Source of the DNA: Hyphomicrobiales bacterium
Lineage (GTDB): Bacteria; Pseudomonadota; Alphaproteobacteria; Rhizobiales; Hyphomicrobiaceae
Assembly: GCA_031367895.1 (NCBI GenBank)
Contig: JANLQP010000104.1
Span: forward strand, 6,375-70,374
DNA: 64,000 nt
Direction of reading: 5' to 3'
Shown: positions 12,236 through 20,905 of the stretch, piece by piece
How the letters are laid out: every line of letters starts with the position of its first letter
Numbering within the stretch: the stretch's first letter is position 1
The notes under the pieces: generated by a model
What the model saw: only the letters and a program-made list of their open reading frames with translations
Databases searched by the model: none
Told to the model about the DNA's origin: nothing
Made by a program: the position numbers and the translations under genes

Positions 12236-13207
12236 ATGCGTCGTCGTGACTTTCTGGGACTGGCCGGCGCCTCACTTGCTGCAGGCCTTCCGAACCCGGC
12301 CCTCGCGCAAGGCGCCAAATGGCCCGAGCGGACCGTCAAATTCGTCCTCCCCTATGCTCCTGGTGGTGCCACAGACTTGATCGGGCGGCCCTGGGCCGAC
12401 AAGCTGACACAGGCCTTCGGGCAGCAATTCGTGATCGAAAACCGGGGTGGCGCCTCCGGCGTGATCGGCACCGAAGCAGTCGCGAAATCGGCCCCTGACG
12501 GCTACACGTTCCTGCTGACGCCGAACGCGCCGCTCTCGGTCCAGACGCAACTGCGCAAGCTCTCCTACGACGCCTTCAAAAGCTTCGCGCCGGTCGGCCG
12601 CGTCGGCGATCTGATCAGCGGTTTCGCCATCCATCCGGCGGTCGGCGTCTCGACGTTCGCGGAGATGATCGATTACGCCAAGAAAAATCCCGGCAAGCTG
12701 GCCTATGGCTCGGCTGGCAATGGCACCAACTCGCACCTTCGGCTGGAGACCCTGAAAGCTGCAGCGGGCCTCGATATCCTGCACGTGCCCTATCGCGGCA
12801 ATGCCGACGCGCTGAACGATCTCCTCGCCAACAACGTGCAGATGATGAACGAGATCAATCCGATGCCACACGTGAAGGCTGGCAAGCTGAAGCTGCTCGA
12901 CATCAGCTACCCCGAGCGGCATCCGGATTTCCCGGGCGTACCAACGCTTTGGGAGGTCGGCTATGGCGAAACCTATATTCCGAGCTGGTATGCAATTTGG
13001 GCGCCGGCCGGCACTCCCCAAGCAATAATTGACATGCTCAACGCCAAGATGATCGAAATCGCCAAGACACCGGAGATGAAGGCCCAGTTGCTGGCCATCA
13101 ACGTTGCGCTCAAGCCACAAACTGCCGACGAGATGGGCGAGCACCTGGTGAAGGACTACGAGCGGATCGGCGCGCTCTTGAAGCGGATCGAGATCAAGAT
13201 CGAATAG
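12236..13207 (+). CDS. Bug family tripartite tricarboxylate transporter substrate-binding protein (TctC-like)
   Basis: 323 aa. Tat-like signal MRRRDFLGLAGASLAAGLPNPALA. Typical Bug motifs PGGATD and GSAGNGTNSHL. Confidence 0.9.
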   Translation: MRRRDFLGLAGASLAAGLPNPALAQGAKWPERTVKFVLPYAPGGATDLIGRPWADKLTQAFGQQFVIENRGGASGVIGTEAVAKSAPDGYTFLLTPNAPLSVQTQLRKLSYDAFKSFAPVGRVGDLISGFAIHPAVGVSTFAEMIDYAKKNPGKLAYGSAGNGTNSHLRLETLKAAAGLDILHVPYRGNADALNDLLANNVQMMNEINPMPHVKAGKLKLLDISYPERHPDFPGVPTLWEVGYGETYIPSWYAIWAPAGTPQAIIDMLNAKMIEIAKTPEMKAQLLAINVALKPQTADEMGEHLVKDYERIGALLKRIEIKIE

Positions 13208-13314
13208 GCAGTGCAGGCGGTTACAGGGAACAGGGGTGACAGGTTACGCCTCCGCGTCCCGTACTTCCCCGCCACCTGGAACCTGTCAGCATCTTCCCCT
13301 CCTCCTGCACTGCC
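13207..13314. other. Long imperfect palindrome / structured element downstream of the Bug gene
   Basis: GGCAGTGCAGG (13207..13217) is the exact reverse complement of CCTGCACTGCC (13304..13314). An inner pair TGACAGGTT (13237..13245) / AACCTGTCA (13280..13288) is also exact. Confidence 0.4.
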
Positions 13315-13595
13315 TTCTGCGGCATCCCGCCATCCGTGCGCCGGGTTGAACCCCTGCCGAGCACGTGCTAAGTGGTCCACCGTCTTTACAAGGTGCCGCT
13401 GCCGCTCGTCGGTGTGCCGGCCCTTTGATGTTGAACCTCCCTCCAATTGGGTGCCCGCACGGGCTTCCAGCAAGGGGCTGACCTGATGGCCTGATGCCGA
13501 AGTGGGCATCCGCGGCTAAAGGGCACCGGCCGGGTTTCCTTGCGAAATGGGGCATTTGGCGAGAGCGCGAGCACGTGGCGAACGACGATCCAATC

Positions 13596-14137
13596 ATGGC
13601 GAGCGTGCCGGGCAGATATGCCTCGGCGCTGTTTGATCTCGCGAACGACGAGCGCAAGCTGGTCGACGTCGAAGGCGATATGATCCGCGTGCAACAGCTG
13701 CTGGATGCCAATCCGGATCTGGTGCGCATGGTGCGAAGCCCGGTGTTCTCAGCGGACGAGCAAGGCAAAGCGATCACCGCGATTGCCGCCAAGGCTGGGC
13801 TCGGCCCGCTGACGGTCAACTTCCTCAAGCTGCTGGCGCGCAATCGTCGCCTGTTTGCCCTTGCAGACATCGTCAAGGCCTTCCGCGGCATCACCGCGCG
13901 CCACCGCGGCGAAGTGATCGCCGAGGTGACGTCGGCACACCCGCTGACGGAAGCGCAGGCAAACGCGCTCACCGACACGCTGACCGGCACCGCCGGCGGC
14001 AAGAAAGTCCAGATCACCACGAAGGTCGACCCGGCATTGCTCGGCGGCCTGACCGTGAAGATGGGCAGCCGTCTCATCGACAGCTCGCTCCGCACCAAGC
14101 TCAACAGCCTCAAGATGCGCATGAAAGAGGTCCGCTG

Positions 14138-14138
<1 letters not shown>
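13596..14138 (+). CDS. atpH: F0F1 ATP synthase subunit delta (OSCP)
   Basis: Starts at [16 protein letters not shown], a typical delta N-terminus. Its stop overlaps the atpA start (TGATG). ORF in the track is 13494..14138. Confidence 0.85.
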
Positions 14139-15667
<1,529 letters not shown>

Positions 15668-15940
15668 AAGTAGTTGCTATTGCCAACATCGACGATACTC
15701 AAGTGGGCTGCGCTGTTGTTGGTTCTGGTCGTCATGGTTGCTTCTGGCGGATTGGCCTACACACGGTATGAATGGCGGCAATACCAGGTTACGACGGCGG
15801 CTTAGCGGGCGGCCTCGACCCAAGCATGGGATGCTGGGTCAGACTTCCGAGTGGTGGAATGGAGCGCATTGACCCCCGCGCGGCGAAATGAGATCACACG
15901 CTCGACTAGGTTGCTACGCAGAGAATAAGCGAGAAGTGCA

Positions 15941-16159
15941 ATGGACGTTGAACTCATCAGCGATCAGAAAGGGAAGCTTCAGGACCTTGTGGGATCTACG
16001 CGGTCCATTGGCCCCGACGGACCGACCTACCAGGTCCTTCGTATCATCGACGAAACACGCGCCCTTATCTCTATTCTCGAGGCCGAGCGTCAGGTCGAGT
16101 ACGACATCGCGGACATCCTGAAAGATCCTGGACCCGACGCGGCTTGGAAAAATCGCTGA
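15941..16159 (+). CDS. Small protein (72 aa), putative partner/antitoxin of the downstream VapD-like gene
   Basis: Its stop overlaps the next start (TGATG at 16157..16161). It is a paralogue of the 80-aa ORF 17404..17646: 15 identities in a 52-residue ungapped hand alignment, sharing GPxGPxYxV and L.DP. Confidence 0.6.
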   Translation: MDVELISDQKGKLQDLVGSTRSIGPDGPTYQVLRIIDETRALISILEAERQVEYDIADILKDPGPDAAWKNR

Positions 16160-16446
16160 TGTTTGGGCTGGCGTTCGATCTCGACACAGTGGCCGCAAAA
16201 CGAAATCATCCCCGCGGGTCGTCGGCGCAGGCATACACAGACATCAGGATGACGCTGGCCCCCTATGGGTTCGAACGCATTCAGGGCAGCACGTATGCAG
16301 CGAGCCATGAAGATCATGGCAAGCTCTTTCTCGCGCTGACTGCCCTGCGAAATTTGACTTGGCTCGGTACCAGCTTGCACAACGTCCGGGTGTCCCGGAT
16401 GGAACAGGGAACGGACTTCACCGAAATCATGAAGTCTCCACGTTAA
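16159..16446 (+). CDS. VapD-like (Cas2-fold endoribonuclease family) protein, divergent copy
   Basis: 95 aa starting MFGLAFDL. It keeps the AYTDI..L.P.GFERIQGS.Y core of VapD. The C-terminal motif is degenerate (SRMEQGTDFT instead of F.VE.WSDFT). About 36 identical positions in my hand alignment to the copy at 17657..17935. Confidence 0.8.
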   Translation: MFGLAFDLDTVAAKRNHPRGSSAQAYTDIRMTLAPYGFERIQGSTYAASHEDHGKLFLALTALRNLTWLGTSLHNVRVSRMEQGTDFTEIMKSPR

Positions 16447-16473
16447 CGAAAAAGACGCGCAGGATTCAAATCG

Positions 16474-17349
16474 ATGGCCTCACTCAAAGAGATGCGAAAC
16501 CGCATTGCCTCCGTTAAGGCGACGCGGAAAATTACCAAGGCCATGCAGATGGTCGCAGCCGCCAAGCTGCGTCGCGCACAGGAAGCGGCCCAGGCCGCGC
16601 GTCCCTACGCCGAGCGCATGGACCGCGTGCTCGCCAATCTGGCATCGAAAGCCAGCAAGGAGGGCGCCTCGCCGCTTCTCGTTGGCACTGGCAAGGACCA
16701 GGTGCACCTGCTCGTCGTCATGACCGCCGAGCGCGGCCTGTGCGGCGGCTTCAACTCGAACATCGCCCGTCTCGCACGCGCGGATATTCAGCGGCTGAAT
16801 CGTGACGGCAAGACGGTCAAGATCATGTGCGTCGGTCGCAAAGGTGCGGACAACCTGCGCCGGGACTTCGCCCGCCAGATCGTCGACCGCATCGACCTCA
16901 AGGCTGTGAAGCAGATGAGCTTCACCAATGCCGAGGATATCAGCCGGAAGGTGATGGCGATGTTCGAGGCGAAAGAGTTCGACATCTGCACGATCTACTT
17001 CTCGCAGTTCCAGAGCGTGATCGCGCAAAAGCCGACCGCGTTGCAGCTGATTCCAGCCAAAGTGCCCGAGGCGAAGGCCGACGCGGGCGCGAAATCGGCC
17101 GTCGAATACGAGCCCTCCGAGGAAGAGGTGCTTGGCGATCTCTTGGTCCGCAACATTTCGACACAGATCTTCCGCGGCCTCCTGGAGAACGCGGCGTCCG
17201 AGCAGGGCGCGCGGATGTCGGCCATGGACAATGCGACGCGTAACGCCGGCGACATGATCAACAAGCTGACGATCAAGTACAACCGCCAGCGTCAGGCGAA
17301 CATCACGAAGGAGTTGATCGAGATCATTTCGGGCGCCGAGGCGCTTTGA
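16474..17349 (+). CDS. atpG: F0F1 ATP synthase subunit gamma
   Basis: 291 aa. N-terminal [36 protein letters not shown] and C-terminal [15 protein letters not shown] are classic gamma-subunit ends. Confidence 0.97.
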
Positions 17350-17403
17350 CATCCGAATTGATTTCGTATTTGGTTTGTTCTCGTCAACCAGCAGGAGCGG
17401 GAC

Positions 17404-17646
17404 ATGGCTTCACAAGGTCGAGCAACGCGGGGCGGTTATCGCGAGGCACAAGCAAAGTACGGCTTTGCAGAACAGCGCGCTTTCATCGGCGATGTCCGTC
17501 GCTTCGGGCCGTTCGGACCGGCCTACGAGGTGGTTGATGTAAAGGCGAACGGTGACGTCCGCATTGTCGTGATCGAGACAGGCGAGCGCTTGGACTACGC
17601 GCAAGCTGAGTATCTCGCCGATCCTGTCGCCGAAACGGTTCCATGA
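17404..17646 (+). CDS. Small protein (80 aa), putative partner/antitoxin of the downstream VapD gene
   Basis: AGGAG RBS 6 nt upstream. Paralogue of 15941..16159 (GPFGPAYEVV vs GPDGPTYQVL). It ends 10 nt before the VapD start. Confidence 0.65.
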   Translation: MASQGRATRGGYREAQAKYGFAEQRAFIGDVRRFGPFGPAYEVVDVKANGDVRIVVIETGERLDYAQAEYLADPVAETVP

Positions 17647-17656
17647 GGTCTGTGTC

Positions 17657-17935
17657 GTGTTCGCCATAGCATTCGTCATGGTCGTCGCCGATATCAGGCA
17701 GCACTATCCCAAGGGGATATCGAGCGCCTACACGGAAATCGGGAAAACGCTCACGCCGCATGGGTTCGAGCGGGTTCAGGGGAGTGTCTACCTGACGCAT
17801 AACGCCAGCTTGGCGAACCTGTTCGATGCGATCGACGCATTGAAAGCAATGAAGTGGTTCAAGCTTTGTGCCCGCGACGTCCGCGGCTTCAAGGTCGAGA
17901 ACTGGTCGGATTTCACAGCGTCCGTTAAGCGCTGA
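17657..17935 (+). CDS. vapD: Virulence-associated protein D (VapD) family endoribonuclease-like protein
   Basis: 92 aa with a GTG start. MFAIAF...YPKG.S.AYTEI...L...GFERVQGSVY...LF.AI.ALK...WF...VRGFKVENWSDFT matches the VapD family pattern, as recalled from Helicobacter and Haemophilus VapD, along the full length. Confidence 0.9.
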   Translation: MFAIAFVMVVADIRQHYPKGISSAYTEIGKTLTPHGFERVQGSVYLTHNASLANLFDAIDALKAMKWFKLCARDVRGFKVENWSDFTASVKR

Positions 17936-17975
17936 ACGAATGCGCGGCTACCCCACCGGCGCCGCATGGGAATGA

Positions 17976-19436
<1,461 letters not shown>

Positions 19437-19469
19437 ACCGCGGCATGCGCCGCAGAAAGTGAGACCGTC

Positions 19470-19721
19470 ATGGCCGCCGACGACAAGAAGTTCGGCTCGT
19501 GCTGCGAACTGTTGCGCGATGCGATGAGCGACGAGGATTTCGATCCGCTCATCACAGTCGGCGAAGATGACGGCATCCTCTATCTCTCTGTCGGCCTGAT
19601 CGACGTCGAGGAAGAGCAGCCGGGCTCGGTCGAGTATCCGATGCTGCACTGCCCGTTCTGCGGCACCGCACTGCAGACGCAGGACGAGATCGACGCGAAG
19701 AGCGCCGGTAAGGCCAACTGA
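19470..19721 (+). CDS. Acidic 83-aa protein with a C-terminal CPFCG motif, function unknown
   Basis: Strong GC3 codon bias like the neighbouring atp genes. It lies on the same strand between atpD and atpC. Cys residues are CC near the N-terminus and CPFC near the C-terminus. Confidence 0.65.
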   Translation: MAADDKKFGSCCELLRDAMSDEDFDPLITVGEDDGILYLSVGLIDVEEEQPGSVEYPMLHCPFCGTALQTQDEIDAKSAGKAN

Positions 19722-19761
19722 GCTGAACGGCTGCGGCCGCTGACAAGAGCATGGGACCGAT

Positions 19762-20190
19762 ATGGCAGGTACGTTCAAGTTCGAGCTGGTGACGCCCGAG
19801 CGCATGATTATCCCGGAGCTTGCGGGCGACCCTAAATCACCCGCCTCGGCCGATGCCGAACAGGTGGTTGTGCCCGGCGCCGACGGGCAGTTCACGGTGC
19901 TCGCCGGCCATGCGCCTGTGATCGCGGCACTGCGCCCCGGCGTGCTCGACATCAAGCTCACCAACGGTCAGCGGCGCATCTTTGTGCGGGGCGGCTTTGC
20001 CGAGGTGGAGCCGGACCGCCTCACCGTGCTGGCGCAGCACTACATCGACCTGGACGGCAAGGACCGCGGCAAGATCGAATCTGAGCTCAAGTCGGCGGAA
20101 GCACAGCTGGCGGACGCGAAGGACGACTCTTCCCGGCTCGCCGCGCGGGACGCCGTCGACGCACTCCGGTCGCTTGCGGCGGCCGGCTGA
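19762..20190 (+). CDS. atpC: F0F1 ATP synthase subunit epsilon
   Basis: 142 aa. FKFELVTPE...VVVPGADGQFTVLAGHAP is typical of epsilon. There is an extra stretch of about 12 aa (PELAGDPKSPASAD) near the N-terminus. Confidence 0.9.
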   Translation: MAGTFKFELVTPERMIIPELAGDPKSPASADAEQVVVPGADGQFTVLAGHAPVIAALRPGVLDIKLTNGQRRIFVRGGFAEVEPDRLTVLAQHYIDLDGKDRGKIESELKSAEAQLADAKDDSSRLAARDAVDALRSLAAAG

Positions 20191-20332
20191 GTCCTGTAGG
20201 GCGCGTTAAGCAACCCCGTAATGCGCCGATGCGGTATCAAGGTCGGCGTAATTAAGGCTTCGCCTATTGCGCCCACCGGCATGGAATCTGCGAAGCGAAG
20301 CCGTCAACCCTTGCGCGCGAAGGACCGACCCC

Positions 20333-20905
20333 ATGGCCCGCATTCCCTATCCCGATCTTGCCAAGGCGTCGCCCGAAGTCCGCGACATGCTCGGCCGACT
20401 GCCGTCGCCGGCTAACATTTTCAACATGATGGCGCATGCCGAGACGTGCCTGAAGCCCGTCATGAAGCTTGGCGGTACCCTGCTCGGCAAACTGAAACTC
20501 GCTCCGATGCTGCGCGAGTTGTGCCTGCTGCACGCGGTCAAGCTCGAAGGCGGAGATTACGAGTGGGTGCAACATGTGCCGATCGCGCTCGATCTCGGCG
20601 CGACGCAGCCGCAAATCGATGCGCTCGCCAAGGGCGACGACAAGGCCGGCTGTTTCAACGCGCTGGAGAAGGCCGCGCTCGCTTTCACGCGCGAGGTGGT
20701 CGTCGACGCCAAGGCGTCTGAAACAACGCTCGCAGAACTGCGCCGACATCTGTCGGAGCGTGAGGTCGTAGAGCTGATTCTGATGTCGGGCTTCTACATC
20801 ACTTTGGCGCGGCTCACCGAAACGCTTGGTGTCGAGAACGATCCGCCGATGGGCAGCGCCCTCATTCGCGGCATCGAGAAGAGGGTTGCCGCGAAGAAGC
20901 CGTGA
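20333..20905 (+). CDS. Carboxymuconolactone decarboxylase (AhpD-like) family protein
   Basis: Starts at MARIPYPDL, inside ORF 20267..20905. CMD-type helical repeat including YEWVQH. Confidence 0.85.
   Translation: MARIPYPDLAKASPEVRDMLGRLPSPANIFNMMAHAETCLKPVMKLGGTLLGKLKLAPMLRELCLLHAVKLEGGDYEWVQHVPIALDLGATQPQIDALAKGDDKAGCFNALEKAALAFTREVVVDAKASETTLAELRRHLSEREVVELILMSGFYITLARLTETLGVENDPPMGSALIRGIEKRVAAKKP

Follow-up and report, generated by a model that had tools for sequence, protein, structure and literature searches.

A VapX-VapD cassette within the ATP-synthase operon of a Hyphomicrobiales bacterium, with valine at the catalytic position 7 of VapD

A VapX-VapD pair between atpG and atpD

We analysed a 64,000-nucleotide stretch of DNA from a Hyphomicrobiales bacterium (contig JANLQP010000104.1; "the window" below, with positions counted from its first letter), in which the F1 ATP-synthase operon holds a two-gene cassette, vapX-vapD, between atpG and atpD (17404-17935). 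We call it cassette 2; a paralogous cassette 1 lies in the preceding atpA-atpG spacer. All genes of the operon, and the cassette 2 features that follow, are on the + strand. On the 5' side, atpG (F1 gamma subunit, 16474-17349; an open reading frame (ORF) whose identical counterparts in contigs L001 and L083 match Pfam ATP-synt) ends in a TGA (17347-17349) that falls within the TTGACA hexamer of a conserved promoter-like motif (17346-17380), a candidate promoter or operator. An AGGAG Shine-Dalgarno sequence (17393-17397), as read from the letters, stands 6 nt ahead of the ATG of vapX (17404-17646; 80 amino acids (aa)), and the vapX TGA (17644-17646) is followed, after a 10-nt gap, by the GTG start of vapD (17657-17935; 92 aa). 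The GAGG Shine-Dalgarno sequence of vapD (17645-17648) overlaps the vapX stop and lies 8 nt ahead of the GTG; the TGAGG element at this stop/start junction is kept in orthologous loci. The 3' flank is atpD (F1 beta subunit, 17997-19436). An earlier reading of the letters, made without database searches (the sequence-only reading), had described a two-gene module with a small gene upstream, as in VapXD of Haemophilus influenzae, and had noted the AGGAG and the 10-nt gap; all of this stands.

The 92-aa product aligns with H. influenzae VapD (PDB chain 6ZN8_A) over residues 1-90 with an E value of 4.3e-27 and with Helicobacter pylori HP0315 with an E value of 1.5e-17, and 468 homologues were found. 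An AF2 model built on 21 homologues reached a predicted local distance difference test score (pLDDT) of 94.4; its top Foldseek matches were 6ZN8_A and 6ZN8_B, with template-modelling (TM) scores of 0.83-0.87 (0.85 for 6ZN8_A, at about 50% identity), and matches to 6ZN8_A/B, 6ZI1 and 3UI3 together spanned 0.72-0.87. Pfam CRISPR_Cas2 scored 23.9 bits, barely over its cut-off of 23.8, and the PADLOC Cas2 model 38.7 bits; PADLOC matched Cas2 models alone, without defence-system context, and the PHROGs library gave no meaningful match. The motifs GFERVQGSVY and VRGFKVENWSDFT, singled out in the sequence-only reading, are both present in the translation, and Ser43 and a second acidic residue, Asp74 (Asp76 of HP0315), are intact. 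The GTG start is shared by all close strains, and more distant orthologues begin with ATG. By homology and predicted structure, then, this is a full-length VapD with a Cas2 fold, as had been proposed.

The identity of the upstream partner had been judged differently: the sequence-only reading found it unlike VapX, a view that family profiles, a PDB profile search and the predicted fold overturn. The 80-aa protein scores 30.8 bits on Pfam DUF5397 (PF17375; gathering cut-off 26), and a partial H. influenzae VapX sequence, taken from the PDB alignment, reaches 106.7 bits there, which identifies DUF5397 as the VapX family. Against the VapX chain 6ZN8_C the protein gave an E value of 0.013 as a single sequence and 0.0019 as a profile of 23 homologues, for which VapX was the sole match across the whole PDB. 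The AF2 model (pLDDT 79.9, core above 90) is a predicted SH3-like beta-barrel whose top Foldseek matches, 6ZN8_C and 6ZN8_F (E 5e-4, 33-35% identity; 35% over 60 columns), were the only ones below E 0.001, the next being Tudor/PWWP barrels, also SH3-like small barrels, at E of at least 0.05. All family-invariant residues are kept, nearly all 80 related genome loci have a VapX-like ORF immediately before vapD, and on Neisseria plasmids RefSeq names the same gene pair "endoribonuclease VapD" and "DUF5397 family protein". Judged by these profile and model comparisons, the 80-aa partner is a VapX homologue, and cassette 2 is almost certainly an ordinary type II toxin-antitoxin module of the VapXD family. 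A literature search on DUF5397 found nothing relevant; our results support renaming "DUF5397 family protein" annotations to VapX antitoxins.

The closest structural reference is H. influenzae VapXD (PDB 6ZN8; VapD alone, 6ZI0 and 6ZI1), which cassette 2 resembles in its vapX-vapD order, in the similar sizes of its proteins (80 and 92 aa here), in a VapD about 50% identical over its full length, and in a VapX homologous by family (DUF5397) and by fold. In the H. influenzae complex the cleft of the VapD dimer is blocked by a single VapX (PMC11980593), and the same mechanism would be expected of cassette 2. The H. influenzae locus is stand-alone, in a pathogen, whereas cassette 2 belongs to an environmental alphaproteobacterium and lies inside its F1 atp operon. 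The same two-gene module is found on the Neisseria gonorrhoeae cryptic plasmid, whose VapD is 56% identical to that of cassette 2 and is paired with a DUF5397 protein, and in other plasmid VapXD pairs (199 plasmid records). Such plasmid pairs would act as addiction modules; cassette 2, by contrast, is chromosomal and flanked by essential genes.

A rare valine at the catalytic position of VapD

The sequence-only reading had called this VapD canonical-looking and did not notice that its catalytic Asp7 is replaced by valine. Codon 7 (17675-17677) is GTC where the family has GAC, the changed base being 17676. At this alignment position Asp occurs in 119 of the 120 best homologues, the sole Val being that of the window's protein, and in 83 of the 85 VapDs at genome loci outside the cassette-1 lineage, where the exceptions are the same Val7 allele only. 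Homologues 97-99% identical to the window's VapD carry Asp7. At the DNA level, codon 7 is GAC in the near-identical contigs L083 and L085 and GTC in the window, L001 and L002. D7V aside, the protein equals the close-strain consensus and stands one or two residues apart from Asp7 alleles. The window and L001 differ at two positions in vapX, which places the Val7 allele on at least two haplotypes and so makes an assembly error unlikely.

Of the eight combinations that three variable sites in these near-identical strains (vapX Tyr22/Phe, vapX Ile57/Val and vapD D7V) could form, four are seen in the window, L001, L083 and L085. Neither vapX variant is tied to D7V, a pattern that suggests recombination, or mutation that has recurred, in this population.

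Mutational work on relatives bears on what the substitution would do. In HP0315, D7A, L13A, S43A and D76A each strongly reduced RNase activity; D7A cut activity "significantly", its abolition being unreported, and D76 has been proposed as a second nucleophile (PMC3351183). In VapD-Mur, D7N abolished both toxicity and SOS induction, and the naturally inactive VapW paralogues have Val at the position equivalent to Asp7 (PMC11980593). The Val7 of the window's gene is comparable to the engineered D7N used for the H. influenzae structure 6ZI1; the GTG start is a further difference from the H. influenzae module. Since Asp7 is near-invariant among homologues and important in HP0315 and VapD-Mur, the toxin of this strain is probably dead, or its catalysis strongly weakened, and by analogy with those mutants we consider it rather likely that D7V abolishes its toxicity.

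VapWD of Campylobacter jejuni (PDB 9KAN; PMC11980593) offers a precedent: its VapW has the VapD fold without the catalytic Asp, which is replaced by Val at the equivalent position. C. jejuni VapW, however, is an old, divergent antitoxin paralogue that lacks the dimerisation interface, and the cassette 2 protein is a point variant of a typical VapX-associated VapD. Asp7 is lost to Val here as in C. jejuni VapW (V11), and Ser43 is retained. VapW is also divergent, lacks the C-terminal dimerisation interface and is encoded beside an active vapD, none of which fits the protein here: it is full length, 97-99% identical to Asp7 alleles and adjacent to vapX.

Recurrence, expression and persistence of the cassette in atp operons

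Searching by VapD, we examined the best 80 genome loci and found vapX-vapD between atpG and atpD in 14 of them (L003-L013, L019, L035 and L082, all species-level genomes). Thirteen of the 14 are metagenome-assembled genomes that carry a Hyphomicrobiales, Hyphomicrobiaceae or Devosia label, and one (L010) is labelled Betaproteobacteria. Identity across these atp-embedded loci is 60-84% for VapD, 70-87% for atpG and 83-91% for atpD; the other 66 VapD loci come from many phyla and have no atp genes nearby. Cassette 2 is under purifying selection: the ratio of nonsynonymous to synonymous divergence (dN/dS) lies near 0.14 for vapD and near 0.2 for vapX, as against 0.16 for atpG, rough values given that synonymous divergence (dS) is saturated for many pairs. 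VapD distances track those of atpG and atpD (Spearman 0.52-0.53, Mantel p about 0.005), and the atp-embedded VapDs group as one clade (neighbour-joining bootstrap 61%). Together these results suggest that the cassette has for the most part been passed on vertically among the atp-embedded lineages.

Searching by atpG instead, among 80 relatives, gave a complementary view. The eight closest with atpD in view span 75-85% identity: in seven the atpG-atpD spacer is empty (35-135 nt), and in the eighth (L100) a 645-nt gap contains no vapD. Across all 80 relatives found by atpG, vapD occupies this spacer in two. On the atpG tree cassette-filled and empty lineages interleave, and the cassette is therefore an accessory element of the operon. 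Its patchiness reflects either repeated loss or recombination-mediated spread through the conserved atp flanks. Comparison of the empty and filled atpG-atpD spacers of close relatives revealed no recognisable boundaries or target-site duplications. The G+C content at third codon positions (GC3) is 0.59 for vapX and 0.77 for vapD, compared with 0.83-0.87 for the atp genes, which fits a foreign origin or weaker codon selection.

Relatives also carry other small genes at these positions. A GNAT acetyltransferase (Pfam Acetyltransf_3) lies between vapD and atpD in L082 (5281-5919) and L019 (2709-3275), and an ORF at the same position in L008 (5284-5742) is GNAT-like as judged by eye. The atpG-vapX spacer of L010 contains a weakly DUF2059-like ORF (487-1029; 22.8 bits against a Pfam cut-off of 23.6), and unannotated ORFs of 79 aa (L089, 5767-6006) and 109 aa (L087, 3211-3540) occur in atp spacers of further relatives. 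Given this varied cargo, the spacers of the operon look like an insertion hot spot. In L013 a VapD-VapX fusion ORF (1211-1735; also protein P0085, 160 aa) lies between atpG and atpD, with the toxin first and thus in reversed order.

The promoter-like motif upstream of vapX reads TTGACA, 14-17 nt, then GTATYY-GKTTTGTTC, and lies 24-58 nt upstream of the vapX start. The window, L001-L008 and L019 all have it. In the last of these and in L007 it stands further downstream, travelling with the cassette and away from the atpG stop, and its core occurs once in the window. TTGACA...GGTTTGTTC is absent upstream of about 60 non-atp vapXD loci (L014-L081) and upstream of cassette 1, which makes it specific to the atp-embedded cassette-2 lineage. 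A generic sigma-70 scan, which allowed 16-18 nt between hexamers, called no canonical promoter at cassette 2, since the spacer before GTAT is mostly shorter than that. From its conservation and placement, the motif is probably the cassette's own promoter or operator. A terminator scan found no + strand terminator between the atp genes, including the vapD-atpD interval; read-through from atpG is therefore expected, and cassette 2 is most likely co-transcribed with the atp genes. An RNA element at the cassette was considered and found no support: Rfam gave no match at E of 1 or below over 13000-20500, and the atpG-vapX spacer folded no better than shuffled sequence (z = -0.08).

We propose, with a probability of roughly 0.7 for the account as a whole, that cassette 2 is a VapXD module transcribed with the atp genes, kept by purifying selection and disarmed in this strain by D7V. 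The module would have been acquired once, in the ancestor of an uncultured Hyphomicrobiales/Hyphomicrobiaceae group, and from then on passed down largely by vertical descent, with purifying selection acting on it; many related lineages would have lost it or never have fixed it. VapX would be translated first and, by analogy with the H. influenzae complex, bind the cleft of the VapD dimer and block the active site of what would be a Cas2-fold nuclease with toxicity dependent on Asp7 and Ser43. Transcription would most likely run through from the atp genes, with probably a further promoter of the module's own that overlaps the atpG stop. Addiction would be the simplest cause of purifying selection in carriers, and the single A-to-T change that turned Asp7 into Val would have left a recently disarmed module with its antitoxin still intact.

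Several observations weigh against this account. The protein reaches 33 bits on the NCBIfam VapD equivalog NF041506, for which the cut-off is 100. The position-7 substitutions assayed in VapDs are Asn and Ala only; VapD RNase activity has been shown in vitro, and SOS induction has been seen in other VapD clades (PMC11980593). For the evolutionary part, the atp-embedded VapDs form one clade with a neighbour-joining bootstrap of just 61%, dS saturation blurs the dN/dS ratios, the atpG tree interleaves filled and empty lineages, and spread by recombination through the atp flanks would compete with loss. The null result of the sigma-70 scan likewise counts against a promoter at the cassette.

Among the competing explanations, the least unlikely is that the pair is fully active in this strain too, Val7 being tolerated and catalysis carried by Asp74, Ser43 and Asp12. 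The intact Ser43 and Asp74, the residual activity that the HP0315 D7A report leaves room for, the proposal of D76 as a second nucleophile (PMC3351183) and a VapX without signs of decay all speak for it, but near-invariance of Asp7 in both homologue sets, the non-toxic VapD-Mur D7N and the Val found at this position in inactive VapW (PMC11980593) make it unlikely. It is also improbable, in our view, that the host has co-opted the module, with a VapX-restrained VapD cleaving or controlling the polycistronic atp mRNA or coupling ATP-synthase expression to growth arrest, and that this accounts for the fixed site. Such a role would suit a cassette that occupies this one spacer, and evolves under purifying selection, in 14 or more species-level genomes, a second VapXD cassette in the neighbouring spacer and the probable co-transcription with atp genes. 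Yet a selfish addiction module would also show purifying selection, most close atpG relatives have no cassette and interleave with carriers, which argues that it is dispensable, and what appears to be a catalytic knockout allele circulates naturally; the unrelated cargo in the same spacers (GNAT acetyltransferase, small ORFs) fits an insertion hot spot.

The valine itself invites two further readings. A Val7 VapD might act as VapW does, neutralising an active VapD (the cassette-1 copy or Asp7 alleles) through mixed oligomers: VapW antitoxins are inactivated VapD paralogues, that of C. jejuni has Val at the Asp position (PMC11980593), and 1.2 kb upstream lies the gene for another VapD, one that keeps Asp7. 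We regard this as very improbable. VapW proteins are old and divergent, have usually lost the Ser as well and have no C-terminal dimerisation interface (PMC11980593), whereas the window's protein is 1-2 residues from Asp7 alleles and keeps Ser43 and its whole C-terminus; its upstream partner, moreover, is VapX and not VapD, and the two VapD copies are just 38% identical. An error of sequencing or assembly at codon 7, in what would then be an ordinary Asp7 vapD, is very improbable too: the difference is a single base in metagenome-derived sequence, and L001 and L002 may be two assemblies of one sample, but GTC is found in three assemblies (the window, L001 and L002) and the window is set apart from L001 by its two vapX differences.

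A type II toxin-antitoxin pair in, and probably transcribed with, a conserved housekeeping or regulatory operon has a parallel, for example, in mazEF of Staphylococcus aureus, upstream of the sigB operon. Cassette 2 differs from it in toxin family, in having the ATP-synthase operon as host, in that neighbouring spacers are both filled, and in its patchy occupancy. No comparable toxin-antitoxin module within an atp operon came up in a full-text literature search. Both protein families have been described before; what is new is the recurrent ATP-synthase-operon niche, with another cassette one spacer away, and the presumed catalytic knockout in circulation.

The host benefit of chromosomal toxin-antitoxin modules is still disputed, and here near-identical strains from one series of metagenome samples (which includes SAMN19433739, SAMN19433731 and SAMN19433719) carry either the wild-type allele or a putative natural knockout. 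This offers a natural setting in which to ask if modules of this kind persist by addiction, by hitch-hiking on an essential operon or through a host function, in a group whose atp spacers present themselves as a hot spot for small cargo genes. Co-option, if true, would mean toxin-antitoxin control of energy metabolism, with D7V as a ready-made loss-of-function variant; should the speculative readings all fail, the locus would be one more VapXD locus.

Cassette 1 and other genes of the operon

Upstream of cassette 2 the operon runs through atpH (13494-14138) and atpA (14138-15667) to cassette 1 (15941-16446), which lies in the atpA-atpG spacer and consists of a VapX-like gene (15941-16159; 72 aa, matching DUF5397 weakly and 31% identical to cassette 2 VapX across 48 residues) and a divergent VapD (16159-16446; 95/100 aa), assigned by its homology to cassette 2 VapD. 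The two VapDs share 35 of 92 positions (38%, BLASTP), close to the 36 or so that the sequence-only reading had counted by hand. Cassette-1 VapDs (D1) form a clade of their own with 98% bootstrap support, and all four further D1 homologues whose contigs were examined occupy the atpA-atpG position with a DUF5397 gene upstream. Mean identity is 58% among D1 proteins, 66% among the cassette-2 VapDs (D2) and 41% between D1 and D2; against other VapDs it is 45% for D1 and 57% for D2. D1 and D2 proteins are thus each closer to their own kind than to one another, and the split is therefore older than the species themselves. The much closer positional orthologues that each copy has in other species exclude a recent duplication. 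The earlier judgement that the copies are not a recent duplication is thereby upheld; its two options, old paralogues or independent acquisitions, were not separated by the tree, where a joint D1 and D2 clade appears in 27% of 200 neighbour-joining bootstraps. It suits an ancient duplication within the operon, followed by rapid divergence, as well as separate acquisitions.

The cassette-1 VapD lineage (orthologues in L007, L009, L012 and L082) keeps Asp7 and Ser43. In seven of eight sequences it has Asn at the equivalent of Asp74 (Asp76 in HP0315), and it replaces the otherwise invariant Arg73 (by His, Gln, Lys or Thr), Trp83 (by Gly) and Ser84 (by Thr or Ala). With Val7 in cassette 2 VapD and the Asp74 site altered in cassette 1 VapD, each copy in the window is without one acidic residue important in HP0315. 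In one cassette-1 carrier (L091, 2734-4053), opposite-strand genes, including an IS66-family transposase fragment, follow atpG in place of atpD, which suggests that its atp operon is disrupted or rearranged.

Two further small ORFs lie in the operon. Directly 3' of atpA, in the 273-nt spacer ahead of cassette 1, a hydrophobic 43-aa ORF (15674-15805) has an apparent single transmembrane helix and weak DUF2537 and PRK13682 matches only; it may be no real gene. Between atpD and atpC (19762-20190) lies a conserved 83-aa ORF (19470-19721) that matches no Pfam family; it has an HCPFCG motif at its C-terminus, a host-like GC3 of 0.83 and a dN/dS of about 0.27. It occupies the same position in many relatives, some of them without vapXD, and is represented by 133 clusters among 1.84 billion representative proteins.

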